From a virus (lineage: Duplodnaviria; Caudoviricetes), in the IMG/VR virus record IMGVR_UViG_3300002171_000009, positions 1-61,513 of that record: a stretch of 61,513 nucleotides of DNA. One strand, 5' to 3'. The notes beneath the pieces are model-generated. The model worked only from the letters and a program-made list of their open reading frames with translations. It did not search any database and was not told the origin of the DNA. A program made the translations under genes and the position numbers. Below, piece by piece: positions 1 through 61,513 of the stretch. How positions within the stretch are numbered: position 1 is the stretch's first letter; every line of letters starts with the position of its first letter.

Positions 1-462
1 ATGGGTAGCATAAGATCTCCAGCCAAGAGGAACACCCAACAGATTCAGCTCCTCCCATCTCTCCGCGACATTGAGATCAACCCAACACCGCATCCCATGT
101 TCCTGGAAGAGCCGGGATAGGTGCCGCTTCTTGGCGATCTGCCAGAGGGCTCTATAGTAGGGCTGTGCATTAGATGTGCTGAAATTGACTTCTATGAAGC
201 TTGGGGCCTTGCTCTCCCAAACCTTCGCGGGCCTTTCCCAAAGCTTGCGCCAATGGTGGCCATGCTCTACAGCAGTCCCAAGAGCATCAAAACGATTGTC
301 GTCCTCCCAAAAGGTGATTGTGTTTCCTATGAGTTCTTTGGTTCGGGCAACTGATCCCCATTGGCGAGGGTAGTCTAATACATCTCCTTGCATGGATGGG
401 TCGAGATCGGCCACGCCTTCGCTATTGCTGCTCGCGAATAGACAATCTGGAACTTCTGACAT
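1..462 (-). CDS. DUF4417-like protein, 3' truncated by window edge (paralog of 59532..60287)
   Basis: Open frame from ATG at 462 (GGTGA SD) to base 1, absent from the ORF track. MSEVPDCLFASSNSEG..TFWEDDNRF..EVNFST..KRHLSRLFQEHGMRCWVDLNV..LLGVPLGWRSYATH aligns by eye with FPSSNAEG..HFYTDDYRF..EPNFST..KRWISRWAQSYGIEIWVDLAV..LLGVPKGWRAYST. Confidence 0.8.
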   Translation of the reverse strand, partial: MSEVPDCLFASSNSEGVADLDPSMQGDVLDYPRQWGSVARTKELIGNTITFWEDDNRFDALGTAVEHGHHWRKLWERPAKVWESKAPSFIEVNFSTSNAQPYYRALWQIAKKRHLSRLFQEHGMRCWVDLNVAERWEELNLLGVPLGWRSYATH

Positions 463-474
463 GTTTCACCTATT

Positions 475-762
475 TCATGGAGAAAGAGGCCATGCAGTCC
501 ACCTGCATGCCGCTTAAGCCATGATTTGACCTTCTTATGATGTAGTGCCTTGTCACGATGTGACTATCAATATGATCACTGCTATCGATGATACAAATCC
601 GATGCATAATCGTGCTTCGCATAACTGAATCGCATCTTCCCATAATATTCGAATGCCTTCATGAGTCGCTTAACCTTTTTCTTGGGGAATTTATGCGAAT
701 CCTCGAAATATTCGCGCGATAATTGCTCAACAAATTCGTCGAATATCATGCTCTTTCTCCCT
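475..762. repeat. 288-bp imperfect direct repeat, copy A (copy B 61226..61513)
   Basis: Ungapped match at offset 60751; 15 mismatches, 13 of them in 496-547; 662-762 identical. Confidence 0.95.
582..749 (-). CDS. 55-aa hypothetical protein (MIFDEFVEQLSREY...), second copy 61333..61500
   Basis: Manual translation; purine-rich SD upstream; frame conserved in both repeat copies. Confidence 0.55.
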   Translation of the reverse strand: MIFDEFVEQLSREYFEDSHKFPKKKVKRLMKAFEYYGKMRFSYAKHDYASDLYHR

Positions 763-1526: not shown

Positions 1527-2321
1527 TCAGGTGAATGGAGCCTGTAATGTCTCAGCCTGGGTGGTCTCAAGTTGTGGCACTTGTGAGAGTCCAAGGGCGG
1601 CCACCTTTGCGCAGACATAGTTGATCATCTGGGAGCGAGTGCCTGTGGCGGTCAGAGCCTTGCATAGGTAATACGAGAATGCGCCTCGGACCTGCCCATT
1701 GATGATTAGCTCTGCGGAGGTCTGTCCATCTTGGCAACCGGCCCAAAGCACATGGTTGAGGCCCGGAACAAGTACAATGGCCTTAGTCTTTGCTTTGGTC
1801 TTTCTTGCCTTTTTGCCCACAATTGGCGGAAGAGATCGGATCGTAATATTTGAATCTATTTCGCGTGTGCCTGTCCCCGAATGGCAGCAATCCATGAACA
1901 CATCGAGCGTTGCGTCTGCGGGCAGCCTAGCAAAGATCGCTCTCAGATCATCGTCCGAAATGTACTGCGGCCAATCGATGGGGCAAATAACCTCATCCCA
2001 GCCGTCGGCTTCATCACCGGATGCATCCCGGACCTGTGAACCATGACCCGAGAAGAAGAAGATGAATTTGTCGTTGTTTCCTGGAATGGCACAATCCACC
2101 ATTCCATTTAGAGCGGCCAATATCGGTGCTTTGTTGGCATTGAGAAGCGTGTTGCTGGTGAACCCACGCATTTTTAGAACATCGGCCATTGCCTTCGCAT
2201 CATTGAATCCTCTGGTGGCGATAACACCATTGAACACGTTTGCATCGTTGATACATCCGGATAATGGGGCGGTTGAATATGCGTCGTTTCCAACCACGAC
2301 AGCGAGCTTTTGGGGTGGCAT
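1527..2321 (-). CDS. caspase/metacaspase-family peptidase (C14)
   Basis: LSGCINDA, FFFSGHGSQ (catalytic His), DEVICPID, DCCHSGT (catalytic Cys), GAFSY and QVPQL motifs. Confidence 0.92.
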   Translation of the reverse strand: MPPQKLAVVVGNDAYSTAPLSGCINDANVFNGVIATRGFNDAKAMADVLKMRGFTSNTLLNANKAPILAALNGMVDCAIPGNNDKFIFFFSGHGSQVRDASGDEADGWDEVICPIDWPQYISDDDLRAIFARLPADATLDVFMDCCHSGTGTREIDSNITIRSLPPIVGKKARKTKAKTKAIVLVPGLNHVLWAGCQDGQTSAELIINGQVRGAFSYYLCKALTATGTRSQMINYVCAKVAALGLSQVPQLETTQAETLQAPFT

Positions 2322-5777: not shown

Positions 5778-6506
5778 TTAATAGAACAACAAAAAATCTA
5801 TGATTTGGTTGAGATTATTATGCGTGTATCCGAAAGTTACGTGAAAAGCCTCGTGGCACTTATAACAAAAAGTGATCCCGTTATCTATATTTGTGCGCAG
5901 ATGTTCAAATTCAGAGAAATTGTATACATGATGAGCACGAAAAACACCACTCTTGCCATTTCCACATTTTACGCACTTATATCCATCTCGTTCAAAAACA
6001 CCTGATCTCCAAGTTTGATATTCCTTTGAATAATACATTTGGTTTCGCTCAGGAGTTATCCCACCTTTCCAATTCCAGTGGCTTTCTTTTGGTTGCCCAG
6101 CATGCCTATTATGAGCTATGATCTTAGCACGCCGTTCTGGCGAGCATGGCTTTATTTTCTTTCCGAGTTTCGCATTAGATATATTAGCACAGTGCTCTGG
6201 CGATTTTGGCAAAGCGGCAGATGGATTTGGTTTTCCCATCTTCATAGAGGATATCAAAGCACAAAATTCTGGAGATCTGCGTTTTCCCTTGTTTGATTGC
6301 GATATTTTCAGGCGCGTTTCTTCAGACAAATGTTTTCCAACTCGGTGAGACCCCATAGGGCGGACTGGGATATTATACCTATGAATCCATTTCCAGATAC
6401 ATTTTTGGGCTACGCCCTGCTCTTTCGCTATCTCGTCAAAAGATTTTTTGTTTATTATATACTGTTCTCTAAGCCAAGCCTCGTCCCGATAGAGCTTTTC
6501 AGCCAC
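5778..6506 (-). CDS. NUMOD3-HNH homing endonuclease
   Basis: HLSEETRLKISQS repeats, NWKGG, CVKCG..AHH..NGITFCYKCH; GTG start after ATAGGAG; low GC. Confidence 0.88.
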   Translation of the reverse strand: MAEKLYRDEAWLREQYIINKKSFDEIAKEQGVAQKCIWKWIHRYNIPVRPMGSHRVGKHLSEETRLKISQSNKGKRRSPEFCALISSMKMGKPNPSAALPKSPEHCANISNAKLGKKIKPCSPERRAKIIAHNRHAGQPKESHWNWKGGITPERNQMYYSKEYQTWRSGVFERDGYKCVKCGNGKSGVFRAHHVYNFSEFEHLRTNIDNGITFCYKCHEAFHVTFGYTHNNLNQIIDFLLFY

Positions 6507-6635
6507 TTTAATACATCTCCTATCATGTATCCTAGAAAGTGTCATGCTGGCAGGCCGTCTAGGGAAACGGCTTTTCGGGGATCAGCCTAGCCAGCGAGTG
6601 TTATTTATCACGATACTATTTATAAGTATCGTGTT
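6507..6635 (-). promoter_or_regulatory. TATA promoter plus structured 5' leader RNA of HNH gene (copy 1)
   Basis: TTATAAATA flanked by the palindrome CACGATAC/GTATCGTG; stems GCTGGC/GCCAGC and GCCGT/ACGGC; homologous to 58018..58150. Confidence 0.75.
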
Positions 6636-10766: not shown

Positions 10767-12086
10767 TTATATCATCCCCCCATTCAGACGGCTATGTTCA
10801 TCGATCAATGCATTTATTCCAGCGGCAGCTAGCTCTTCATATCCCGCCTTCTTCCTAGCTTCGTTTATGCTAACGATGCCATTGGCGATATGAGACACCA
10901 AAATGTTATTTTCAGCGACCTTGTCCTCTTGTTTTATCGGCCACCAGTTATAAAATACCCTGGTGCCATCCTCAAAACCATTGTACCCTATGAGAATGGC
11001 TTCATCGAAGTGCTCAAATGGTGCAGCGCAGACTTCTCTCCAGCCCTGTGATAGAATCGTGAATAAGTCTAATGCCGGTTGGCTGCTCTTACTCAAGGTC
11101 TGGCCCATCGTATCAAGAATCTGAGTGGGGACCAAATGAAGCAGAAGTTTCCTCTCGATGTATTGATCTATGGCTTGAGCCGCTTCTGCGCCAGTCGTGG
11201 CTGGATACTCAAGTTTGCCTCCCGGTGGGAGGTTGAACGCGGTTCCTATGGACTGAGACTTGACTACCTCATCCATGAGGTCTTTTATTCCGGACGGAAG
11301 ACCATTAACGATTGAGGTATCCGTATTCTCGGAGAGCCATTTGGCCGCCTCTAAATCGAAGGTAGCAACTGCGTTTGGTACACCAACCCGTTGAACCGAC
11401 AGACCCAAACACTTTCTCACATAATGCCAAAAATCGATAGTTGGCATAATAGAAGCTAGGATGCTTTGGTTGCCCGGCAGCTCCCAGAATATATGTAGCA
11501 GCTCCTCTTCGGGAACTTCCACGGGCTCACCATACAGGCTCTGTGACTGATAGAAGTGCTTTTCGCCGGATGCTCTATCAACTATGATACCCTGCAAGAG
11601 AGGGTCACGCCAAAACTTATTGGAATCAGACGCATTGGCGGGTGCTTTACCAAACGATTCAGCAGGAAGCCTATTGAACGTGTCGGGAATCGTCCAATTG
11701 CCATCTGTCTTCAGAGAATAATTGAAAATGCTGTGTCTAAAACCAATGGTGTCATAATAGGCCCATCGGATTGACTCCAGTGGCTTAACGACCTTATGGG
11801 CCACGCCAAGGCCTTTCTTGGCTTCCTGAAGCTTCGCTTCGGGCCATATTTGCCCATCCGGTGGGATGATTTCTACATCAAAACCGGGGAACGCAGCCAT
11901 CGCTATAGGCACTATGGCCTCTTGGATAGGCGGCACCGAGAAGGCGGATACAATGGATGCAGGATTTATGGCCGTGCTTCTAGCGGTATATGTATTAGCG
12001 GCATATGCGGGTTGAGAAGACACCGCCGGCCTGGTGGAGCCGGCCGCATTGGTTAGCTTCTTGTAAGGGCGATGGATTTTTGTCAT
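10767..12086 (-). CDS. portal protein
   Basis: 439 aa directly after TerL; EELLHI, RVGVP and GIVSINEARKKAGY motifs. Confidence 0.8.
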   Translation of the reverse strand: MTKIHRPYKKLTNAAGSTRPAVSSQPAYAANTYTARSTAINPASIVSAFSVPPIQEAIVPIAMAAFPGFDVEIIPPDGQIWPEAKLQEAKKGLGVAHKVVKPLESIRWAYYDTIGFRHSIFNYSLKTDGNWTIPDTFNRLPAESFGKAPANASDSNKFWRDPLLQGIIVDRASGEKHFYQSQSLYGEPVEVPEEELLHIFWELPGNQSILASIMPTIDFWHYVRKCLGLSVQRVGVPNAVATFDLEAAKWLSENTDTSIVNGLPSGIKDLMDEVVKSQSIGTAFNLPPGGKLEYPATTGAEAAQAIDQYIERKLLLHLVPTQILDTMGQTLSKSSQPALDLFTILSQGWREVCAAPFEHFDEAILIGYNGFEDGTRVFYNWWPIKQEDKVAENNILVSHIANGIVSINEARKKAGYEELAAAGINALIDEHSRLNGGMI

Positions 12087-13669
12087 GCATAAACCGCTTT
12101 GCTGGAGATTTGCATATGGAGTTTCTTCTTAGCGTTCTGTATTCCTTCCAGACACATCTCAATGGCATCTACGCCATCATCATGCGCGTTCTTGTCAGGG
12201 AAGATCCTAAATTGGTTGATCAATTCCCTGTAAACCTTCGCCCAGTCTTCCCTAAAGCACAATTGCCCGTTGTTAAAATGCGCCTCAAGCGATCGAATCC
12301 TGTCATCTTTGTGCTTAGTATGCCAGATAGGGATGTAAGGCACTGCTGTGCCCGCCTTCTGCTGCTCCTGCTTGAGCACGATCTCAAAATTGCTCCTATG
12401 TCCCTTCATCCAGGCAGATTGCGCAATCTCGAGGGAGTTGGCTTCTATCCAGACAGTGCGATAATTATATTGCTGCTGGGCTTCTATGAGCTTGCTTATC
12501 GATTTGCTTTGCACATCTACAGACAGATCGCATTCCCACACCAGCCATCTGCCATCTGGGAGGACGGTAATTGTGACCAAAGCGGCGTAATCGTTGCCGC
12601 CTTTGGAGAGATCGAGAGCGGCATAGAAGGCACATTTGGAGAGATCAACCTTCCCGGGTGCAACCATCAAATCTTCGATTTTTTGTACATTGAATATGGC
12701 ATACTCGTCATTGTGCGGGTCTTGCTGATAGACCGACATCCAATCGTAATGCGATTTCGCCTTTGCAGACAAATAATATTTCTCGGGATATCTTTCGGGC
12801 CACAGCCATTCTCCCGGTTGCCTATGATCGTATTCGTTTGGAGCTATCGCTTCAGCTGGAAACTTCAGAACGGTCCATTGATCATTGTTTGGATCTTCTT
12901 CGGCCTTCTTGAGAAGAGTGCCTGCCAAATCTTCCTCATTCCAGCGCGTGACTGTCAGCAAAAGCCGGGCATTGGCTTGTCCCTCGCCACTCGTTGATTG
13001 CCTAGTCCAGAAATCGCCATCATACCAGGACTGTACTCGCTCTCGGATGGCTTTGGATTCAGCATCATTTCGACCCCGGAATGGATCATCTATTATCCCA
13101 TGTGTCATGGGATTTCCAGAAATACCGCCGCCGATGCCGGTGCATACATAGCTTCCGGTGTGATCCACGATCTCGAAATTATCGGCGTTCTTCAGCCAAG
13201 TATTATTTGCAACTGTGACTATGTTTTTGCCAAACAATTTTGAATCGGGAAAGACCTCACTGTAAGCCTTGGATGTCATGATCCGTTGGACGGATCTATT
13301 CATTTTGCGAGCCAAATGTGAGCCATAGGACGCGGTTATGATTTTGGCTTCGGGATCTTTACCGAAAATCCAGGCCGGGAGATTGCGGCTCACAAGCTCG
13401 CTTTTCCCATGCTGAACAGGCATGAAGAGCATGAGGCGAGTTATGGCATCTTCACCTTGCCCGAAGGCCCACCTTTCCAGATAGGAACAGATTACCTTAT
13501 GATACCAGGCCGGGCGATAGTTAGGTTTTACATAAAGGATGAAATCAAGTAGACTTTGCCTCGCCAGTTCCTGATCGATCTCCTTCAAGCTTGCTTCTAA
13601 TGGATCTAAGCTGCCTAAGTTCGTCGGGTGATAGCTTGGAGAGATCTGGTTTAATGCTGACGTTGACAT
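12083..13669 (-). CDS. terL: terminase large subunit
   Basis: Walker A MPVQHGKSE, IIDDP Walker B, TRWNEEDLAG, YQQDP, nuclease ALDLS and HDDGVDA. Confidence 0.95.
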   Translation of the reverse strand: MSTSALNQISPSYHPTNLGSLDPLEASLKEIDQELARQSLLDFILYVKPNYRPAWYHKVICSYLERWAFGQGEDAITRLMLFMPVQHGKSELVSRNLPAWIFGKDPEAKIITASYGSHLARKMNRSVQRIMTSKAYSEVFPDSKLFGKNIVTVANNTWLKNADNFEIVDHTGSYVCTGIGGGISGNPMTHGIIDDPFRGRNDAESKAIRERVQSWYDGDFWTRQSTSGEGQANARLLLTVTRWNEEDLAGTLLKKAEEDPNNDQWTVLKFPAEAIAPNEYDHRQPGEWLWPERYPEKYYLSAKAKSHYDWMSVYQQDPHNDEYAIFNVQKIEDLMVAPGKVDLSKCAFYAALDLSKGGNDYAALVTITVLPDGRWLVWECDLSVDVQSKSISKLIEAQQQYNYRTVWIEANSLEIAQSAWMKGHRSNFEIVLKQEQQKAGTAVPYIPIWHTKHKDDRIRSLEAHFNNGQLCFREDWAKVYRELINQFRIFPDKNAHDDGVDAIEMCLEGIQNAKKKLHMQISSKAVYA

Positions 13670-19969: not shown

Positions 19970-22900
19970 TTACCTCTGCGTGTACCTACCCGTTGGCAAC
20001 TTCGCATAATTCGCTTCTAACCATGCTTTAACCTGTTCTTCGGGCAAATGCAGCTTTCCGGCTATGATGCGATGATCAACTGACCCATGAATGCCATATT
20101 CTTGACGAGCGGCTATGCGAATGCGTGTTATGTCGCTTGTTGGCGTTTCCATGTCGATTTTGCCCATCGTCTGGTTACTACTGGTTACTGCACGGTTACT
20201 ACACTGGTTACTATATATATCTCTCTCTATCTCTCTACTACTATCGTTTATCTCTTTTTCTTTCTTTGCGGTAACCAGAGTACCCACTTTTTGGGCCGAA
20301 AAATTATTTTCTTTTTTTTCTTTTAAGTTTTCTTCCTTTTCACCGGTTACTCTGGTTATTTGGGTACTCAGCGTCTCCTGTTGCTCTTTTTTAGTAACCA
20401 TTGGAGGGTTACCATCTCCGTTTGGTTGGGTACCTTCTGGAACCGTTGAGTCTGCGAATGCGGGTTTCTCCATTTTGACATACCATCCCCGGACCTTTGC
20501 CCCGTTTAGACTGACTTGGTACTTTTTTCTTTGCGTCCCATCCGGATTCGTCTTGCATATTAGGTATCCGGCTCTGAATAATGCCGTTGTCATGCTCTCT
20601 TCGGTTGGTATTTGGGTGAATATTTTGAGCTTTCCCATTTCTGCCAGAGTCGCGTCTGGCATCAACCACATTCCGTCCGGCATTGATTTTCCGATAGCAA
20701 AGCCTGCTATATGCTTTGTTGACGTTGAATCCATGAATAGTCCCGGGTTGCCCATCATGAGCTGATTCAATCCTCGGATAAACCGCGCCGCCTCCGTCTC
20801 TTCTCTGGTAGCAATGCCCTGTGATATTGCTAGGTTATCAAGAGCTGTGATAAATTTGCCTCTGAAATCTTGGAATACATTCCCCATCGGAGACATTTCA
20901 AGCAATTCCCAAACGGTTTTAAGAAGAGTATAAATGGTTGCCGTCCTGCCAGCGACCGTGTATCCGGCGTCTCTGAATTCTTCCAGTTTCATATTTTGAG
21001 TTTTATCAAATAAATCTCTGTTTATATTAGTAACTGATGTAAGAAACTTGAGCCAATGAAAACCCAATACGGGCATTAACTTAACATTTCTCTGTGCTTC
21101 TCGGAGCAATTTCGCATTGGTGCCTTGCCATTCTATGTCCGGTATTCGTGAGGTGGTGGCGGCATCTTGGGGTCTAACTTCGCCGGTGACAATAGGAGTG
21201 CAAGCGTACTCAAATCCATCTCTCAGGCCATTCTCTTTCGTTCCCTGGTTCTTGGAGTGACCTTCAAGCACGGCATTCATGAGACCCACATATTCAATTG
21301 CATCCCTAGAATCTACTGCCTTTACATTATCATAAATCTGTGGCAACCAACCCGCCAACGCGAATATGATACTCGCTGCATAGGTGGTCGTGTTTGCTTT
21401 TCCGCTCTTTAGGCTTGGTTCATCGGCATAACCAACCCCATAGACCGACATCGATATGCAAGCCATCGAGGTTTTAAAGGCATTTGTCAATCCCCAAAGC
21501 CCCAACCCAAACCGCTCGCTTTTGAACCATCGGGCATAAACCGGAGCACCGAATATGGCCGTGATTAGGATAGGAGCAAATGGATTAACTGCTAACAGTT
21601 TTCTCATTATTTCAATAGCAGCATCGAGATCACCGTCATAGACACACGCCGGGATTTTCGCAGAAAGTCGATATTCGATATTGGGCAGAAAGTCAATGCC
21701 TGGTATCAATGGCACTCCTTCTCTCCAGCATGGTACCTCTATTCTCTGCATAAGTCTTATGTTCTGAGATAGCTTTTGTACCTTCTGATAATCGAGTTTC
21801 CCAACTTCGTTTTTGCCCCCAAAAGCGTTAATTATCGCGGCCTTAAATTTCGCTGGAGTCGCCATATCTTCGGCTGGCAATGTAAAGCAAACCGATCGAT
21901 TGTCGATCGCGCCAACTCCCTTGAAGGTAAATTCCGTTATGCTTCCACAAGTGGTCTCCGTGTCAATCCTCAGAGCGCAATCACTCACCCATGCCAATCC
22001 CTTGAAAGTCTCCCCGGTCTCTTTGTTGGTCCTATTAACCACCTTATGGACGGTATAAATTTGTTTTCCGTCTCCGGTAGGCGGCATTATCCCGACCGTC
22101 CCCACTGGATCATCTTTTGTGACATAATTAAATTTTGGGCCTTCTATTTTAGAGTGTTCTGATAGTTTTTTCTGAAGATGGTAATCTCCGGGCCAAATAC
22201 ATCCTTTGCAATTGTCATCAGGAACACAATAACCAAGCCCCCCGATACCAGTATTGGGATATCCATCCGCCACTTTCTGAAGCGTCTTGCAATTTGGGCA
22301 AGACATTTGCCCAAACCAGAGATCAAATATCCTTGATTCCACATCACACTTTTGCGCAAGTTTTTCCCAAACAACAAAAGCCTTTTCCTCGGTCCACCCC
22401 GATTGATAAAGAAAAGAAGCTAGATCTCCTAGTGCCCGGTGTGGTCCCTTTCCTGGAGCAACTTTCTCTAGGATATTCTTCATGCACGGAGGAAAATAAC
22501 CCTCGCTTAACGGTTCTGGCAATCTCGATATTTTGGTTTTTTGGTTTCCTTTTGCTCGGCTCTTTCTGATTTTTAGCTCTTCTTGCATCATTTCGTCATA
22601 TGGAGATAATGCGTTGGTCAGTGCATCGCTTTCAGCCACATCGAAACTATCATACCAGGTCTTGCACTCTTCGAGAACCGCATCCTTGAGGGGCCACGCA
22701 GCCCGACCATAATCTATTGAGATATTGGCGGGATCTAATGGCACTACAACCAGGGGCAACTTCCTGTGAAGGGAGCAAATGCACTTGAACTTTCTTTTTT
22801 GACCTGTGAGCTTGTCGATCTTTACGATGCCGCGCAGTTCTTTGTGGTCTTGAAAAAAGTCATGCTCGATGTCTTGTAATAAAAGCTTGAATGCTCCCGT

Positions 22901-23458
22901 CCTGATCCTATAATATTCTTCTCGCTCATCTCCTGATAACCCCGAAGGAGACATGCATAAGGCGTGATGCAACAGAACATAAACCCCACCGCCCGACATT
23001 AGGCAATGGATGCTCTTTTCTATGCCCGCTTCCTTCAGCCTCTTGACCAGGTAGCCCGCCAGAGCCTCGACCGCTGCTTTTGTTGCTGGGTTTTGCATAT
23101 TATGAGCTATCGAATCTATGTCCGCCCCGAGGGTATAAGCCACACATTCCCGAAAGGTTCCGAGCGTTGGAACAGCTTCATGCTTGATATCATCCCATAT
23201 TCCGGTCAGGTCTCTAACACTTGGTTCCATCACATCGAGCAGAGCATAAAGAGTGCGATACTTTGAAGTGGTATCTTCATAATCATCTGGCACCCTAAGT
23301 CTCAGTCTATCATCCGGTAATGTGATGTACCACCCATCGTCTCCATTCAGGCAGCGGAATCCGTTACAGTCGATTGGTTTGGAGAACTTTTCTATAATTT
23401 CGCGAACCTTCGGTCTTGCATAATGTTCGCGAGTCATATCGGTGGCGGTGAAATTCAT
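19970..23458 (-). CDS. fused primase (AEP plus PriL-like Fe-S domain) and helicase-like ATPase
   Basis: ADID, SGGGVYV, FPPCMKNIL..H..LASFL..CPNC..C..C, then GLWGLTNAFKTS, IYDN and IVTGE. Confidence 0.8.
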   Translation of the reverse strand: MNFTATDMTREHYARPKVREIIEKFSKPIDCNGFRCLNGDDGWYITLPDDRLRLRVPDDYEDTTSKYRTLYALLDVMEPSVRDLTGIWDDIKHEAVPTLGTFRECVAYTLGADIDSIAHNMQNPATKAAVEALAGYLVKRLKEAGIEKSIHCLMSGGGVYVLLHHALCMSPSGLSGDEREEYYRIRTGAFKLLLQDIEHDFFQDHKELRGIVKIDKLTGQKRKFKCICSLHRKLPLVVVPLDPANISIDYGRAAWPLKDAVLEECKTWYDSFDVAESDALTNALSPYDEMMQEELKIRKSRAKGNQKTKISRLPEPLSEGYFPPCMKNILEKVAPGKGPHRALGDLASFLYQSGWTEEKAFVVWEKLAQKCDVESRIFDLWFGQMSCPNCKTLQKVADGYPNTGIGGLGYCVPDDNCKGCIWPGDYHLQKKLSEHSKIEGPKFNYVTKDDPVGTVGIMPPTGDGKQIYTVHKVVNRTNKETGETFKGLAWVSDCALRIDTETTCGSITEFTFKGVGAIDNRSVCFTLPAEDMATPAKFKAAIINAFGGKNEVGKLDYQKVQKLSQNIRLMQRIEVPCWREGVPLIPGIDFLPNIEYRLSAKIPACVYDGDLDAAIEIMRKLLAVNPFAPILITAIFGAPVYARWFKSERFGLGLWGLTNAFKTSMACISMSVYGVGYADEPSLKSGKANTTTYAASIIFALAGWLPQIYDNVKAVDSRDAIEYVGLMNAVLEGHSKNQGTKENGLRDGFEYACTPIVTGEVRPQDAATTSRIPDIEWQGTNAKLLREAQRNVKLMPVLGFHWLKFLTSVTNINRDLFDKTQNMKLEEFRDAGYTVAGRTATIYTLLKTVWELLEMSPMGNVFQDFRGKFITALDNLAISQGIATREETEAARFIRGLNQLMMGNPGLFMDSTSTKHIAGFAIGKSMPDGMWLMPDATLAEMGKLKIFTQIPTEESMTTALFRAGYLICKTNPDGTQRKKYQVSLNGAKVRGWYVKMEKPAFADSTVPEGTQPNGDGNPPMVTKKEQQETLSTQITRVTGEKEENLKEKKENNFSAQKVGTLVTAKKEKEINDSSREIERDIYSNQCSNRAVTSSNQTMGKIDMETPTSDITRIRIAARQEYGIHGSVDHRIIAGKLHLPEEQVKAWLEANYAKLPTGRYTQR
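20171..20435. repeat. GGTTAC/GTAACC iteron cluster around an AT-rich tract (candidate origin)
   Basis: GGTTAC at 20173, 20183, 20194, 20206, 20345 and 20407; GTAACC at 20271 and 20394; T-rich 20301-20340. Confidence 0.65.
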
Positions 23459-56307: not shown

Positions 56308-56457
56308 ATGAAAAAAATAAATATCGCCTTAGAGGACGAATCTCATAGAATTCTGTATGACTACAAATTGCGACATAAGCATTCCTCTCTTGATGTGGCT
56401 TTGAATGAATTGCTATTGGAATGGGAGAGGAAGAATCAGCTATTTAGGAAGATTTAG
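56308..56457 (+). CDS. small RHH-like protein
   Basis: MKKINIALEDESHRILYDYKLRHKHSSLDVALNELL (manual translation). Confidence 0.65.
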   Translation: MKKINIALEDESHRILYDYKLRHKHSSLDVALNELLLEWERKNQLFRKI

Positions 56458-57184
56458 ATTTCTTCCAAGTCCTCTGATCAGTGAAGCTATAATCCACCCG
56501 ACACCGGCAATTCACCATTTGCGGGTACATCTCACCATTAGAGAACCTCTCGTCAATGCCCACCGTTTCGCCTGTCATGGCCAGATGATCTTTTCTCGGA
56601 TTCGGACCCTGCGAATGCTGCCAGGTCTTTGTGACCGCTCCAACTTCGCGAGCTTCCAAATCGGCACCGCCATTGATTGCTCGGAACTTCTCCGTACGAA
56701 ATATGGTAGAAACGCGACCGGGAGAACATGGATAATCTTGCGCGAATCTCTGGCGAAAGGTCCGCTCATTGAGGCCAAAATGCCGCTGGATTTGTTTTTC
56801 TAGCCTTTTAAGATCGGTCGCGGTGAGAGTTTTTACAAGCTTCAGACCTTCTTCTTTCAGATATTTTTGTGCCACTGGATTCCAATCAAATTCGGAGAAT
56901 GGAATATTAAGCGACTTGGCGACCTCGCGCGCCCCTTGCTTTAGTTCTATCAGATTCTCCTCAGTAAGCACGATCTTCGCGACCTGCCAATTCTTCTCTA
57001 GGGAAGCGGCCTTGAGCTTGTTATAAAGGGGGGTGCCCCTGCCAAATCCGATCTTACCGGCGATCTCTTCCTTCTTGACTAGCGAGGTATCTAGGCTGAA
57101 ATAGCCCGCTCGATGAAGCAATCCTACCACATCAGGACTCCATTCTTGGAGCAACTTGAGGACTGCTTTCTCTTCCGGAGTCAC
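56444..57184 (-). CDS. MuF/SPP1 gp7-like minor head protein
   Basis: IFRTE..KTW..PRKDH..MTGE....F.NG..YP..NCRC. Confidence 0.85.
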   Translation of the reverse strand: MTPEEKAVLKLLQEWSPDVVGLLHRAGYFSLDTSLVKKEEIAGKIGFGRGTPLYNKLKAASLEKNWQVAKIVLTEENLIELKQGAREVAKSLNIPFSEFDWNPVAQKYLKEEGLKLVKTLTATDLKRLEKQIQRHFGLNERTFRQRFAQDYPCSPGRVSTIFRTEKFRAINGGADLEAREVGAVTKTWQHSQGPNPRKDHLAMTGETVGIDERFSNGEMYPQMVNCRCRVDYSFTDQRTWKKSKSS

Positions 57185-58017
57185 ATTCCCGCCATCATAC
57201 TAAATTCGTCAATAGTTAACCAATATGCACTAAGCAGATTAAAGTAATGATATCTATGATGACCGGTTTTTGCATGACATGAATGACACAACGGTATCAA
57301 AGACCATCTTTTTCCACAGCCCTGTCCTTTGTTATAATCGACATGGTGTATGCGAAGTCGCTCTTCATTTTCTTTCGCGCCACATATATAACAGTGTCTA
57401 TTAAATGCATTCCTAATCTCTTCTTTTAATTTCTTATTAAACTTGGGGCAATAGTCATCAAATGACACCCCGCCTTTCCATGCAGCATTCTTTTCTAATC
57501 TACGTGATAATGACATTTTTTGTTTTGTTTCTTCTGAATGCTTATACCCAAGCGCAGATTTATTGCCTTTATGTGCTAATGACTGTTTAGCCCTAGTTTC
57601 TTCAGATTGGATTATACCAGTAACAGCCAACGCGATTTTTTCTCTAGTACTTTCTGAAACTGGGTGACCAATGAGCGCCAATGAACGTTTTCGTTTGGAT
57701 TCTTCTGTTTGTGACTTTCCGCGTCTGGCGTCGGACATTTTTTTACGAGTTTCATCTGATGCGGTCCTGCCCGTATTGGCCTGAATTATTTTCCGCCTCG
57801 TTTCATCTGACCAGTGCGTTCCATATCGAGGATTGCTCTCGCCCGCCATATTGGCATGATTATCGGATATTCTTTTCTTCGTTTCTTCCGAGCGCGTAAT
57901 GCCAGTTAACGCATTCGCGATATTTCGCTTATGCTCTTCAGAAAATGCTTTCCCTTTATGCGAATTTGACATTTTCGCTTTGGTTTCTGCCGATAAACAA
58001 GTGCCTTTTTTAACCAT
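57181..58017 (-). CDS. NUMOD3-HNH homing endonuclease
   Basis: About eight SEETKxKMS repeats, WKGG, CYICG..IHHVDYNK..LCHSCH. Confidence 0.9.
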   Translation of the reverse strand: MVKKGTCLSAETKAKMSNSHKGKAFSEEHKRNIANALTGITRSEETKKRISDNHANMAGESNPRYGTHWSDETRRKIIQANTGRTASDETRKKMSDARRGKSQTEESKRKRSLALIGHPVSESTREKIALAVTGIIQSEETRAKQSLAHKGNKSALGYKHSEETKQKMSLSRRLEKNAAWKGGVSFDDYCPKFNKKLKEEIRNAFNRHCYICGAKENEERLRIHHVDYNKGQGCGKRWSLIPLCHSCHAKTGHHRYHYFNLLSAYWLTIDEFSMMAGM

Positions 58018-58150
58018 TTAAATGCATCTCCTATCATGCTTTCCTAGTAGTTTCTTAAGCTGGCAGGCAGTCTAGGAAAACTGCTCTTCGGGAATGACCC
58101 TAGCCAGCAATATGCAATAGGAGATGCTTGCTTATATAAGTATCGTGTCG
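58018..58150 (-). promoter_or_regulatory. TATA promoter plus structured 5' leader RNA of HNH gene (copy 2)
   Basis: ACACGATACTTATATAAG, then stems GCATCTCCTAT/ATAGGAGATGC, GCTGGC/GCCAGC and GCAGT/ACTGC; loop TTTCCTAG complementary to downstream CTAGGAAA. Confidence 0.78.
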
Positions 58151-58161
58151 CTTGCAATCGA

Positions 58162-58581
58162 TTAGAACCCAGACATAGACGCAAATTCGTCTATATTGCT
58201 TGAAGAAATGTTCTGAGTAACTGAACGACCTCCGAGACCTTCAGTTATAACGTTTTGATAAATATCAGTTAATTGAGGTTGGCATTTGTGCCAGCCTATA
58301 CTTATAGGATGGTCTAACGCCTCTCTAATAAAGTAATATCTTTCTGCCCCGTTGCTTCCCACGACAAGCAACACCTTCGCATCACTTATCCTTTCTACAT
58401 GATAATTGATGCTCTTCTGCCAATGTGAGGTGACTATATGAGGGGGGACCTCGGCTTGCATGGCCTGCTTCGCGACGATGCCCATTTGCTTCGCAGCGGT
58501 CATTTGGGCGGCCTTGACTTTCTCCATATGATGAGCCATGCCTGAGAGAACTTCGCTGAGATTAGTGCATGTGATTGGCAT
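58162..58581 (-). CDS. neck/tail-completion protein (HK97 gp10-like)
   Basis: VPPHIVTSHWQKSI..VVGSN..Y pattern. Confidence 0.55.
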   Translation of the reverse strand: MPITCTNLSEVLSGMAHHMEKVKAAQMTAAKQMGIVAKQAMQAEVPPHIVTSHWQKSINYHVERISDAKVLLVVGSNGAERYYFIREALDHPISIGWHKCQPQLTDIYQNVITEGLGGRSVTQNISSSNIDEFASMSGF

Positions 58582-58657
58582 GGCTCATCACCTGGGGGCC
58601 AAACTTCTGCAAGATGGTGTGGATCTGGCGTTCTGGTAGAGACATGGGGAGGACCTG

Positions 58658-58719
58658 GCGAAAAGTATAAATAGTAATATAGCCACTATAGGTATTGGAG
58701 ATGTACTACAATGCCAACC
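58658..58719 (+). promoter_or_regulatory. repeated promoter/SD/start unit, copy 1
   Basis: 54/62 identical to 60309..60370; BRE-TATA, TATAG-N3-CTATA, ATGCCAACC. Confidence 0.8.
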
Positions 58720-59037
58720 AATGAAGTAATCGATATGATAATGTCTGGAAAGAGATCTGAGAAAGTCGTTGCTGAGGAAGTCGATGATTATCCCGAAAAG
58801 CTTCAGAGGGCAGCAGTTAGCCGCGACGTGCCTGAATGGGTTCGCCGGGCAGCCAATAGGATAATCGAGATCGCCATGAGAAAGAATATCCCAGTTGATC
58901 GCGTGAGCTTTGAGGATGCCGGATTAGGCATCCATGACAATATCGTAGAGGCCGCTATTATCGGCTGTGAATCCGAGCGATTCTACAAGATCGTCTGCAA
59001 CTTCGAAGAAGCGATCAAGAATATGGGGGGGTTTTAA
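58711..59037 (+). CDS. variable small protein of cassette 1
   Basis: MPTNEVIDMIMSG...; TAATG coupling to the next gene. Confidence 0.7.
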   Translation: MPTNEVIDMIMSGKRSEKVVAEEVDDYPEKLQRAAVSRDVPEWVRRAANRIIEIAMRKNIPVDRVSFEDAGLGIHDNIVEAAIIGCESERFYKIVCNFEEAIKNMGGF

Positions 59038-59273
59038 TGCCCGCCCCGTGCAAATACTGGAAGGATCAAGCCGATCAGTTTCATGGAGATTGCCAGCACC
59101 CGGAAGTGAATCCGGGCACTCCATGCATCTTAAATACCGAGGATCATTGCGTCCTCCGGGAGGAGTTCACGACCACGATTCAAGTTTCCTATCGCAATCG
59201 TGATAGGTTGCGGGGTGTGGCCTCGTCCATGAATCTGGCGGTTGAGAAGCTGCTGGACGATGCGGGATATTAG
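59037..59273 (+). CDS. Cys4 plus RHH-like protein, copy 1
   Basis: CKYW..C.HP..C......C, then TTIQVSYRNRDRL..SMNLAVEKLLD. Confidence 0.75.
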   Translation: MPAPCKYWKDQADQFHGDCQHPEVNPGTPCILNTEDHCVLREEFTTTIQVSYRNRDRLRGVASSMNLAVEKLLDDAGY

Positions 59274-59530
59274 CGCATCGCCCCCAGATCATAGTATATT
59301 TTTTCGGATTCTGGCATGAGCGCATTCATTTTTCTTTGAGCTTCTGCAATCTTCGGTCTAAGCGCCGCCTCTTTTGCTGCCTGTTCTGGTGTTCGTCGGA
59401 AATCGCGATTGCCAGCTGTTATGGCTTCGTATTCTTGGAGCAGTCGTCCATGTTCGCTTTTGGCTGTTTCGTACGCATTTCCGCCCCCAGATCGCCCGGA
59501 CCTACCACCACCACCTGAACCTTTACTCAT
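59270..59530 (-). CDS. MSKGSGGGGR-leader protein 1
   Basis: Starts 2 nt after the DUF4417-like stop; helical body. Confidence 0.75.
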   Translation of the reverse strand: MSKGSGGGGRSGRSGGGNAYETAKSEHGRLLQEYEAITAGNRDFRRTPEQAAKEAALRPKIAEAQRKMNALMPESEKIYYDLGAMR

Positions 59531-59531
59531 C

Positions 59532-60287
59532 TTAACACCAATCCAACAAATTTGCTACTTTCGGCTGCTCAATGATCATCTTCTTCCCAAGCCGTCCATT
59601 GCTCACAGACTTGGGCATCTTAGGTTGCCTCTGCTTGGTTCCACCAATATTCCGCAAATATGCTTGCTGATGAGCCGGAGTCCACAGCCACCCACGGGCC
59701 TGGCATTTGGCCTGGGTGTCATGCTCTCCCCCGTAACACCAGAAAAGTATTTCATCTGTTCCAGCATGGTCACAGGCGATGGCGAATTGATCCTCAAGTT
59801 CCTTGAAAGAATAATCGCGAGTGTATATAAATGTCGAATATGCTCGCCAGCCTTTGGGAACTCCAAGGAGGGCGATATCATAGAGATTGTCATTGACTGC
59901 CAGATCCACCCATATCTCTATGCCATAGCTTTGAGCCCACCGGGAAATCCATCTTTTGGCATAAATGTAGCTTTTCGCGATAACCAAGGGCATATCGCCA
60001 TTGGTGCTGAAGTTGGGTTCCGCGATGGCCCGACATCCCGAATTTATTATGGGGCTTGGATCATTCCAGAGGGAATTGAAGCGGTAATCATCGGTATAAA
60101 AATGATAGGTACTGCCTTCAACGCGGGCCTTTCTAGCGATTGCGCCCCATCGATTGACGGGCAGCTCCAGGCCGCGAGGTTGCAATGATGGGAGGAGATC
60201 TGGTATTCCTTCGGCGTTACTACTTGGGAATATCCAGTCACCGATATCCTTTTTACCGATAATTTGGGGGAAGAGTTCGCCGGGCAT
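59532..60287 (-). CDS. DUF4417-like protein
   Basis: HFYTDDYRFNSLW..EPNFST..DMP..IYAKRWISRWAQSYG; ATG after a GGTGAT SD. Confidence 0.7.
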   Translation of the reverse strand: MPGELFPQIIGKKDIGDWIFPSSNAEGIPDLLPSLQPRGLELPVNRWGAIARKARVEGSTYHFYTDDYRFNSLWNDPSPIINSGCRAIAEPNFSTNGDMPLVIAKSYIYAKRWISRWAQSYGIEIWVDLAVNDNLYDIALLGVPKGWRAYSTFIYTRDYSFKELEDQFAIACDHAGTDEILFWCYGGEHDTQAKCQARGWLWTPAHQQAYLRNIGGTKQRQPKMPKSVSNGRLGKKMIIEQPKVANLLDWC

Positions 60288-60308
60288 GAGAGGATCACCG
60301 TAAAGCAA

Positions 60309-60370
60309 GCGAAAGTTATTTATAGTATTATAGCTACTATAGGTATTGGATGTGTACTACAATGCCAACC
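60309..60370 (+). promoter_or_regulatory. repeated promoter/SD/start unit, copy 2
   Basis: See 58658..58719. Confidence 0.8.
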
Positions 60371-60511
60371 GCTGAATTCTGCAAGAAACTCCTGAACGGA
60401 GAAGTGAAATCTCATGCGCCGAAGATCTCGGAAATGAGCGAGATGGAGAAGAAAGTCAACTTCGCCAGAACCAGGCGCGAAGAAACCGCAAACAGCTTCG
60501 GGGAGGAGTGA
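60362..60511 (+). CDS. variable 49-aa protein of cassette 2
   Basis: MPTAEFCKKLLNG... (manual translation). Confidence 0.6.
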   Translation: MPTAEFCKKLLNGEVKSHAPKISEMSEMEKKVNFARTRREETANSFGEE

Positions 60512-60516
60512 TTTCA

Positions 60517-60642
60517 ATGGTTACTGCCGAAATGAAGAAAAATCTGATGAGCAAAGAATGGCGAGATGCCCACATGAAGCCAAAGGAAAACTCAAATCCT
60601 GATTGGATTGAATCTGAGGAAGTTCGCGAGGAGGGCACTTAA
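60517..60642 (+). CDS. variable 41-aa protein of cassette 2
   Basis: MVTAEMKKNLMSK...; GGAG/GTGA SD; TAATG coupling. Confidence 0.6.
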   Translation: MVTAEMKKNLMSKEWRDAHMKPKENSNPDWIESEEVREEGT

Positions 60643-60884
60643 TGCCCGCCCCCTGTAAATATTGGAAAGATCAGGCAGATCAATTTCATGGAGATTGCAA
60701 CCACCCGGAAGTGAATCCGGGTACTCCATGCATCCTGAATACAGAGGATCACTGTATACTCCGAGAGGAGTTCATGACAACGATCCAAGTATCTTACCGC
60801 AATCGGGATAGGCTGCGAGCCGTGGCTTCTTCTATGAATCTGGCAGTGGAAAAGCTGCTAGATTTATTTGATGCCAGCCAATGA
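60642..60884 (+). CDS. Cys4 plus RHH-like protein, copy 2
   Basis: Four substitutions over the first 74 aa relative to copy 1, with many synonymous changes. Confidence 0.75.
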   Translation: MPAPCKYWKDQADQFHGDCNHPEVNPGTPCILNTEDHCILREEFMTTIQVSYRNRDRLRAVASSMNLAVEKLLDLFDASQ

Positions 60885-61208
60885 CTCCCAATGCGTCATT
60901 CCTTTTTTGAAGTCGTTGTAGCTATATCGTTTTCCATAGCTTCCTTGGACAGATACCCCATTCTCTTCTATCATTGCCGTTCCCATCGCGTGAGTTAGTT
61001 TTATTGTACCGCCGCGCAATTGTTCAACGGATACGGCCACACCTTTACGTCCATCGCCATACTCGGACCTAATAGCAGCGGTCATCTGCGAATCTCCCGG
61101 AAGAGGTTGCGATCCAGCCAACGGGCGATCTGATCCGGGCCCATATTTTGGATTTCCGCCGCCTCCGCCTCTTCCCGCTCTCCCGCCCCCTCCGCTTCCT
61201 TTCGACAT
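60864..61208 (-). CDS. MSKGSGGGGR-leader protein 2
   Basis: Same leader, unrelated body; GAGGTTGA SD. Confidence 0.75.
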   Translation of the reverse strand: MSKGSGGGGRAGRGGGGGNPKYGPGSDRPLAGSQPLPGDSQMTAAIRSEYGDGRKGVAVSVEQLRGGTIKLTHAMGTAMIEENGVSVQGSYGKRYSYNDFKKGMTHWESLAGIK

Positions 61209-61225
61209 ATATCAACCTCATATCC

Positions 61226-61513
61226 TCATGGAGAAAGAGGCCATGCGATCCATCCGCACGCCGCTTAATCCATGATCTGACCTTCTTGCTTGGTAGTACC
61301 TTGTCACGATGTGACTATCAATATGATCACTGCTATCGATGATACAAATCCGATGCATAATCGTGCTTCGCATAACTGAATCGCATCTTTCCATAATATT
61401 CGAATGCCTTCCTGAGTCGCTTAACCTTTTTCTTGGGGAATTTATGCGAATCCTCGAAATATTCGCGCGATAATTGCTCAACAAATTCGTCGAATATCAT
61501 GCTCTTTCTCCCT
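61226..61513. repeat. 288-bp imperfect direct repeat, copy B
   Basis: Matches 475..762 up to the last base of the window. Confidence 0.95.

Follow-up and report, generated by a model that had tools for sequence, protein, structure and literature searches.

The window analysed here is the whole of IMG/VR record IMGVR_UViG_3300002171_000009, 61,513 bases from a tailed virus (Caudoviricetes; linear class, CheckV completeness estimate 100%). The locus of interest pairs a gene for a protein of family DUF4417 (PF14386) with small open reading frames (ORFs) that have a glycine-rich N-terminal leader in common. On its minus strand, read from high to low coordinates, the locus contains a 55-amino-acid (aa) ORF, leader ORF B (60864-61208, 114 aa), the gene DUF4417-1 (59532-60308) and leader ORF A (59270-59530, 86 aa), with a plus-strand operon of three small ORFs (60350-60884) set between ORF B and DUF4417-1. 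ORF A consists of MSKGSGGGGRSGRSGGGN followed by an orphan body, and ORF B of MSKGSGGGGRAGRGGGGGN followed by a small alpha-beta5-alpha body. The ATG of ORF A stands 1 nucleotide (nt) past the stop codon of DUF4417-1 (TAA-G-ATG). Downstream of ORF A lie a 139-aa ORF, an HNH homing endonuclease and a MuF-like head morphogenesis protein (56444-57184, minus strand; phrog_2468 E 1.3e-22, phrog_2662 E 8.9e-21).

DUF4417-1, which has no ParB domain, scores 86.4 bits against PF14386 (E 2.2e-24; cut-off 28.9). Its real start is probably the ATG at 60287, residue 8 of the ORF, because homologues begin there; 88 of these were retrieved. DUF4417-2 (1-462, minus strand) is a diverged copy with 41% identity to DUF4417-1, truncated by the start of the record to its N-terminal 154 aa, and scores 36.4 bits (E 4.7e-9). 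A genome-wide search found DUF4417 in exactly these two places. A first-pass annotation, made by a model from the letters of the sequence, had described two small ORFs of 86 and 114 aa with MSKGSGGGGR starts, flanking a DUF4417-like gene on the same strand, together with a second DUF4417-like copy and a nearby MuF gene. The ORFs lie where it placed them, the profile searches recovered both copies and the MuF-like protein, and the shared strand is correct. Only ORF A is adjacent to DUF4417-1, ORF B being separated from it by the plus-strand operon.

Both leader ORFs begin MSKGSGGGGR. The pair of coding sequences, ATG AGT AAA GGT TCA GGT GGT GGT GGT AGG versus ATG TCG AAA GGA AGC GGA GGG GGC GGG AGA, differs at 8 of the 10 codons, and Ser2 and Ser5 both swap between the AGY and TCN families; over the first 12 residues 11 are identical, with different codons at 9 of these 11. 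Glycine codons fit a peptide motif or a (GGN)n DNA motif alike, so the serine switches are the informative part, and because they keep the peptide and not the DNA, the leader is selected at the peptide level. Five homologues of ORF B (47-71% identity) were found; all five keep the leader, and they also conserve residues 25-40, N-terminal of Met42. The codon differences read from the DNA are those first reported, and the serine switches and the homologues together sustain the initial view that selection on the peptide, not recent DNA duplication, accounts for the likeness. Of the window's 2,015 start codons that open ORFs of 40 aa or more in any of six frames, only those of ORF A and ORF B match the leader pattern defined below.

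Beyond the leader the two bodies are unrelated, as had been claimed: they give no mutual alignment and fall into separate blastp families. Neither ORF matches a Pfam or PHROG family at E below 0.001, ADP-ribosyltransferases included, and the same scan placed no MuF domain (Phage_Mu_F) in either. In the structural model of ORF B, with a predicted local distance difference test (pLDDT) score of 71, residues 1-19 and 21-26 fall below 50 and the leader is disordered; a fold search with this model returned no structural match, the best PDB hit having an E-value of 0.18.

Linkage between the leader and DUF4417 was measured in two sets of loci, a viral set made up of the best 80 of 504 IMG/VR relatives from a profile scan and a prokaryotic-genome set made up of the best 80 of 106 loci. 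The first IMG/VR relatives had an ORF with a Gly-rich start right after DUF4417 in 7 of 7 cases. An earlier criterion (at least 8 Gly in 20 residues) found a leader in 27 of 80 loci and was replaced by a motif because many leaders are not Gly-rich past position 7. The motif is M-[G/A/S]-[G/R/K]-x-x-[G/S]-G (^M[GAS][GRK]..[GS]G), often followed by GGGR or GR repeats. It was applied in all six frames to each ATG, GTG or TTG that opens an ORF of 40 aa or more, and the test zone covered positions -200 to +1500 relative to the DUF4417 stop, same strand only.

In the viral set the pattern occurs at 59 of 2,354 starts inside the zone versus 17 of 13,701 elsewhere (odds ratio 20.7, p 1e-34), and several of the 17 are true leaders upstream of DUF4417. 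A leader ORF lies past DUF4417 in 49 of the 80 viral loci. Grouping these loci at 80% DUF4417 identity gives 41 clusters, 20 of which have a leader against 3.6% per locus expected (P 1.6e-18). Counting Gly-rich starts outside the pattern as well raises this to 26 of 41, and widening the zone to 30 of 41. Prokaryotic-genome loci, which include some from Bacteroidales, Bacillota, Leptolyngbyaceae, Chthonomonadales and Methanotrichaceae, show the pattern at 67 of 2,101 zone starts versus 15 of 12,652 elsewhere (odds ratio 27.8), with a leader in 52 of 80 loci and a usual spacing of -7 to +7 nt from the DUF4417 stop. Enrichment of such leaders beside DUF4417 homologues, a check that the first-pass annotation had proposed, is thus found in both sets.

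Reciprocal searches began from the bodies. An HExxH body, used as a query with its first 30 codons cut, retrieved 180 loci; among the best 80, mostly from related gut phages and five of them too short to judge, a same-strand DUF4417 gene lies upstream in 71 of the 75 assessable loci and within 100 nt in 59. The N-termini are leader-like by eye in 76 of 80. An ADP-ribosyltransferase body retrieved 11 loci. The three that bear the leader, which are the query loci, all adjoin DUF4417, and the eight leaderless relatives are parts of proteins of 242-1,949 aa, none of them with a DUF4417 gene closer than 5 kb. A scan for the exact DNA pattern of MGRN(S)GGG gave 21 stretches, including five small-ORF cases with DUF4417 upstream in 4 of the 4 assessable. 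The same pattern occurs in a 352-aa family at six loci, none with DUF4417, so a short DNA pattern alone is unspecific.

Leaders from the same genome resemble one another more closely than leaders from different genomes, with a mean of 8.7 of 12 identical residues in nine within-genome pairs (one of these arises from an internal start in a single ORF) versus 6.1 of 12 in 895 between-genome pairs. Genomes with two or three leader ORFs carry near-identical leaders on different bodies. A single Leptolyngbyaceae metagenome-assembled genome (MAG) has four DUF4417 loci (L140, L144, L158 and L159), each with two ORFs that start MGRSSGGGGRS and differ in length.

Several named phages carry the same arrangement. 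In Streptococcus phage A25 (KT388093) the order is DUF4417 (A25_22), an ORF starting MGGRGASSG, TerS, TerL, portal and MuF. The leader ORF, at 1558-1968, overlaps the end of DUF4417, and A25_23 is annotated from 1585, 27 bases late, with loss of the leader; gene 23 appears to start upstream of the annotated position. Gene 1 of mycobacteriophage D29 (NC_001900) is DUF4417. The frame of gene 2 (1063-2097) is open 5' of the annotated start at 1318 as far as the ATG at 1063, which gives the start MGGRGSAGSGG; the extension adds 85 Gly-rich residues and overlaps the last 142 bases of gene 1, and the annotated start is probably wrong. These two phages bear out the statement in the first-pass annotation that DUF4417 genes of bacterial phages are often followed by ORFs starting MGGRG. 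Bacteroides phage Versailles encodes a ParB-DUF4417 protein, then MGRNSSGTRGG heading a body with the motif HELAH, then terminase. Microcystis phage Mic1 has only a weak version, two ORFs further on.

The setting of these loci is consistent. When the longest ORF within 3 kb past DUF4417 was taken for each viral cluster (at least 200 aa in 34 of 41), matches were to Terminase_6N in 10, Terminase_3 in 9, portal families in 3, MuF in 1 and prohead protease in 1, with at least one ORF matching both terminase families. The module belongs to the late head/packaging block, usually ahead of terminase or portal genes. In phages L5 and D29, genes 1-32 are described as one late operon, whose start lies shortly ahead of gene 1, some 230 bases in from the left end (PMC5712189).

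Bodies behind the leader are diverse. From 67 candidate leader ORFs, 58 were kept (at least 4 Gly in the first 15 residues), and their first 25 residues were cut before clustering. The bodies form 29 blastp families, two of which were judged false positives (one came from an alternative frame within a ParB gene, the other from the Walker-A site of a terminase), leaving about 27. A domain census covered 38 of 45 representatives at 90% identity, leaving out the two false positives and five HExxH near-duplicates. Pfam models found ADPrib_exo_Tox in three, CdiA_C in one (E 2.9e-6) and Peptidase_M90 in one; PHROG models found phrog_16681 in seven, Alt-like ADP-ribosyltransferase (phrog_802) in three and head maturation protease in three. 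Phage_Mu_F matched none of the 38 leader ORFs scanned. A JAB-like identity guessed by eye for one cargo was unsupported by Pfam. The body of D29 gene 2 matches DUF3626 (E 1.8e-7), a family reported to include the Salmonella effector SopF. Cargos of the ADP-ribosyltransferase type are confined to related loci and absent from the window, and most bodies, both window bodies included, are without a toxin signature. We take SopF itself to be an ADP-ribosyltransferase. Behind the HExxH cargo there is regularly a small acidic ORF (about 75-83 aa) followed by the small terminase gene (L012, L054, L056, L060, L072 and L085); this ORF may encode a cognate inhibitor or immunity protein.

The DUF4417 protein looks like an enzyme without an assignable catalytic family. 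Invariant or near-invariant polar residues are D73, D74, E97, N99, S101, K118, R119, Q126 and D135, and a reading of the secondary-structure string places the conserved polar residues after strand ends. An AlphaFold2 model of DUF4417-1 built from 48 sequences (pLDDT 84.7) has alternating strands and helices. Foldseek returned no PDB structure below E 0.001; the best named PDB folds were TIM barrels, among which tRNA-guanine transglycosylase (TGT) recurred weakly (E 0.015, template modelling (TM) score 0.32-0.37). BFVD gave a phage queuine tRNA-ribosyltransferase (E 0.02, TM 0.40), ranked after three unnamed matches. Other TIM barrels match the model as well as TGT does, and sequence similarity to the TGT/DpdA superfamily (PF01702) was not found at the profile level, where hhalign of the 48-row alignment against five TGT proteins gave a probability of 0.57% over 13 columns. 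A sequence-profile search of the PDB was empty; a structure search of the ESM Atlas found only DUF4417 clusters, and a feature search no usable match. ParB-DUF4417 fusions are present among the related loci examined, and a dedicated search for longer, fused forms of DUF4417 found none, which is itself weak evidence. The window copies match phrog_940 only at positions 167-341 of 388 and have no Pfam ParB domain; the "nuclease" label of that family was rejected for them, since it describes the ParB half, which they lack. Co-folding of DUF4417-1 with leader residues 1-40 (score 0.01, mark 0.32) speaks neither for nor against binding.

The remainder of the locus is repetitive. A 288-nt repeat with 95% identity occupies both ends of the record (475-762 and 61226-61513) and contains two copies of the 55-aa ORF, one upstream of leader ORF B (61333-61500, minus strand) and the other immediately upstream of DUF4417-2 (582-749, minus strand). 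The record is probably a circular or permuted genome left unclosed across a repeated, variable locus, its ends meeting in the repeat. The plus-strand operon has a counterpart in a second convergent plus-strand pair (58711-59273). A unit is duplicated between them (59025-59257 versus 60630-60862, 83% identity; repeat D2) and encodes a 78-aa Cys/His-rich ORF (59037-59273), convergent with ORF A and overlapping its stop codon, and an 80-aa paralogue (60642-60884) convergent with ORF B. In these two ORFs the N-terminal half is Cys/His-rich and the tail resembles a ribbon-helix-helix by eye; the 78-aa ORF has no Pfam, PHROG or PDB match. A relative, L004, has a similar convergent ORF with the motif TTIQVS. 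An AT-rich intergenic repeat, D3 (60309-60376 and 58658-58725, 85% identity), fills in its first copy the gap between DUF4417-1 and the plus-strand operon. By eye, TATA-like boxes lie about 25-30 bases ahead of each plus-strand operon ATG, and D3 looks like an archaeal promoter giving near-leaderless transcripts.

Three DNA runs, and no RNA run, were listed as containing the stretch. Contigs from two DNA runs, possibly the source samples, contain 58000-61299 unchanged, at a depth of 79 in run X1. Depth climbs to 103-106 over 61186-61421, and contigs break at about 61299. Minor contigs (depth 4-6) join 59009 to 60640, 59158 to 60836, and 60326 back to 58694. The joints fall between duplicated units and therefore represent loss or gain of the DUF4417-1/leader A cassette within the population. 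Two loose-end contig sequences have no occurrence in the window.

Elsewhere the window encodes a large terminase (12083-13669), a tape measure protein, an HK97-type capsid protein recognised by a weak match under the Pfam cut-off, and a caspase-domain protein (Peptidase_C14, E 2.2e-29; 1527-2321, minus strand) inside the minus-strand late gene block. HNH homing endonucleases with repeated basic motifs are encoded twice on the minus strand, at 57181-58017 and 5778-6545, and one of these genes abuts the MuF-like gene with a 4-base overlap. The host is probably an archaeon of the Methanotrichaceae, because the closest DUF4417 genes of prokaryotic genomes, among the matches listed, are those of Candidatus Methanocrinis alkalitolerans (53 and 51% identity), with a Methanotrichaceae MAG also near. 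A 1,162-aa protein with a eukaryotic/archaeal primase large-subunit domain (19970-23458, minus strand), together with this affinity of DUF4417, supports an archaeal host.

The leader is common to unrelated bodies, tightly linked to DUF4417 and beside packaging genes. The reading that we favour, tentatively and at slightly less than even odds, is that it is a common handling tag on polymorphic phage effectors, with DUF4417 as a dedicated partner for virion loading or processing. The locus belongs to a phage module of wide occurrence and conserved make-up, in which DUF4417, alone or, in other phages, fused to a ParB-type N-terminal domain, is accompanied by between one and three small proteins; in each of these an interchangeable body, in several cases a recognisable effector or toxin-type domain, follows a short disordered leader rich in Gly and Arg. 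DUF4417 would recognise and act on the leader, a targeting or processing tag, and the variable cargo would be loaded into the virion or processed at its N-terminus for loading. The cargo would then act as a delivered effector in the next host cell, in the manner of MuF-fused toxins, T4 Alt and the T4 internal proteins. In a bolder form, which we think improbable, DUF4417 would be a new enzyme that cleaves the leader or couples its N-terminus or arginine to phage DNA or a virion protein, so that any leader-bearing protein is carried in the capsid and injected, a general programmable loading chemistry common to bacterial and methanogen viruses. Part of the tag-and-cargo idea put forward in the first-pass annotation survives, namely a peptide-level leader on unrelated bodies, its link to DUF4417, the late packaging locus and some effector-type cargos. 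The enzymatic part, in which DUF4417 would recognise, modify, conjugate or load the leader, fared less well: DUF4417 has no assignable catalytic family, fold matches being weak and the TGT profile comparison negative.

The closest parallel is with MuF-fused polymorphic toxins (Zhang et al. 2012; Iyer et al. 2017; Bxa, Apk2), whose genes likewise lie in the head-morphogenesis block. Reports on these systems (PMC5512222, PMC3482391, PMC11699363) regard domains joined to MuF or portal proteins, ADP-ribosyltransferases and metallopeptidases among them, as effectors delivered by the virion. In both cases a constant N-terminal part is followed by interchangeable effector domains, ADP-ribosyltransferase prominent among them, and the MuF proteins are predicted to be capsid-borne. 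The module has these traits in its 29 body families, its ADP-ribosyltransferase and CdiA_C cargos and its terminase, portal and MuF neighbours. It differs in having as its constant part a leader of some 10-25 disordered residues rich in Gly and Arg, where the toxins have a folded MuF domain, and in the coupling of its cargo genes to DUF4417 as a separate gene; MuF is encoded separately in the window. In phage T4, the internal proteins IPI-III and Alt carry a short capsid-targeting N-terminal leader and are encoded at a hypervariable locus; the leader directs them to the scaffold core and is removed by the prohead protease. A short leader on unrelated proteins is common to T4 and the present module, as is an Alt-like ADP-ribosyltransferase cargo class (phrog_802). 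The leader sequence is different, and we know of no DUF4417-like partner in T4. In type VI secretion, an adaptor or chaperone gene lies immediately upstream of polymorphic effectors with a common N-terminal marker. The DUF4417 module may follow the same logic, as an analogy only, with unrelated machinery and no homology.

The Dar antirestriction system of phage P1 (DarA, Hdf, DarB, DdrB; PMC5512222) is described as having head-loaded effectors with dedicated accessory proteins and a ParB-type domain in some components. No sequence relation to it was found, the P1 proteins are large, and the window DUF4417 copies are without a ParB-type domain. A survey of ParB-CTPase folds (bioRxiv 10.1101/2025.10.10.680097) reports fusions with DUF4417 as enriched in phages and prophages; it treats the same domain, and its accessible part makes no mention of neighbouring leader-bearing ORFs. 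In that source and in PMC8066415, as far as their accessible parts extend, DUF4417 appears only as a domain of unknown function or a table entry. A literature search, with supplementary files outside its scope, found neither the leader nor its association with DUF4417 described in print.

Several observations weigh against the handling-tag reading. No leader-like ORF occurs between -2500 and +1500 in 11 of the 41 viral clusters, and the locus counts are not independent, many coming from few related gut-phage lineages, so that the cluster counts are safer. Four of the 75 assessable HExxH loci have the leader without DUF4417 in the visible 2-4 kb upstream. At L043 (3680-5746) a 689-aa Amidoligase_2 / DAM-like-phage2 / GNAT-phage-like protein replaces the leader ORF, an arrangement that may tie DUF4417 to the modification of DNA or protein. 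The invariant polar residues of DUF4417 fit an enzyme, and a plain adaptor would not need them. In the window itself, a search of 1.84 billion cluster representatives gave no relative of ORF A besides ORF A, and ORF B as called in the record begins at Met42, without the leader. Published mass spectrometry of virions of the A25-like phage Str01 gives 12 proteins, and in the accessible part of that report APZ81907, the ORF after DUF4417 according to a table in PMC8066415, is not among them; the study is described as using stringent cut-offs, with MuF itself near threshold and barely detected.

DUF4417 might instead be a nucleic-acid-modifying or anti-restriction enzyme and the leader proteins separate RGG-like nucleic-acid-binding accessories or effectors, the locus being shared since both act on DNA at packaging or entry. 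The G- and R-rich leader suits this account, as do the barrel-like strand-helix model with tRNA-guanine transglycosylases as its best named matches, the Amidoligase / DAM-like / GNAT-like protein behind DUF4417 in one cluster, and the reported fusion of phage ParB-CTPase folds to DUF4417 or, alternatively, to DNA methyltransferases (bioRxiv 10.1101/2025.10.10.680097). Yet none of the weak fold matches reaches E 0.001 in the PDB, the TGT profile comparison is negative, and no base-modification pathway genes are seen beside the locus in the window. Such a role also leaves unexplained why unrelated enzymes (ADP-ribosyltransferase, HExxH) have the same start and why their genes are spaced from DUF4417 as for translational coupling; we consider it unlikely, though well short of negligible. 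The gap between replication and packaging genes is an accessory-gene hot spot, and the leader ORFs could have no functional link to DUF4417 at all, having descended from one ancestral small gene beside it in a variable pre-terminase island, with the N-terminus retained and the bodies diverged or replaced. Inherited synteny of this kind would be favoured by the 20 of 80 viral loci that fall in one cluster, related phages inflating the counts, and by the minor population variants joining repeated units, which represent cassette turnover by recombination. Against it, the pairing holds across DUF4417 proteins only 35-45% identical and spans Bacteroidales, Bacillota, Leptolyngbyaceae, Chthonomonadales, actinobacteriophages and Methanotrichaceae; body folds with independent histories occur elsewhere without the leader; and leader residues survive codon-family switches and are more alike within genomes than between them. 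Synteny alone is in our judgement distinctly unlikely.

We find it very improbable that the locus is a toxin-immunity or superinfection-exclusion cassette, in which the leader proteins would be toxins, active inside the producing cell or against competitors, and DUF4417 a general neutraliser or activator. Some cargos are toxin-type domains, a small acidic ORF regularly stands behind the HExxH cargo, and the MuF toxins Bxa and Apk2 are reported to have adjoining immunity genes (PMC11699363). A single conserved neutraliser for chemically unrelated toxins is nonetheless unlikely, DUF4417 lies upstream of the cargo where immunity genes are usually downstream, and a toxin signature is absent from most bodies, the two in the window among them. 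That the leader ORFs of the window are untranslated from the proposed starts, the Gly-rich stretch being a by-product of a G-rich DNA or RNA element, is scarcely credible. (GGN)n is equally a DNA motif, so that synonymous third positions of Gly codons do not discriminate, and the gene call at Met42 of ORF B and the orphan status of ORF A point the same way. Set against this, the codon-family switches at Ser2 and Ser5 preserve the peptide and not the DNA, the motif is always at an initiator codon in frame with an ORF of 60-240 aa, the homologues of ORF B are conserved ahead of Met42, and ORF A begins 1 nt past the DUF4417 stop.

If the leader is indeed a common handling tag with DUF4417 as its partner, DUF4417, a common phage domain, would gain its first testable role, and a short transferable tag would mark a large, mostly unannotated pool of phage effectors. 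Routing proteins into capsids by a short tag would have practical value, too, for the loading of phage particles. In the model phages D29 and A25 the tag corrects the starts of genes 2 and 23, respectively, both of which appear to lie upstream of the annotated positions, and this makes the proposal testable in tractable systems. The presence of the module in both bacterial and archaeal tailed viruses points to an old, general mechanism.

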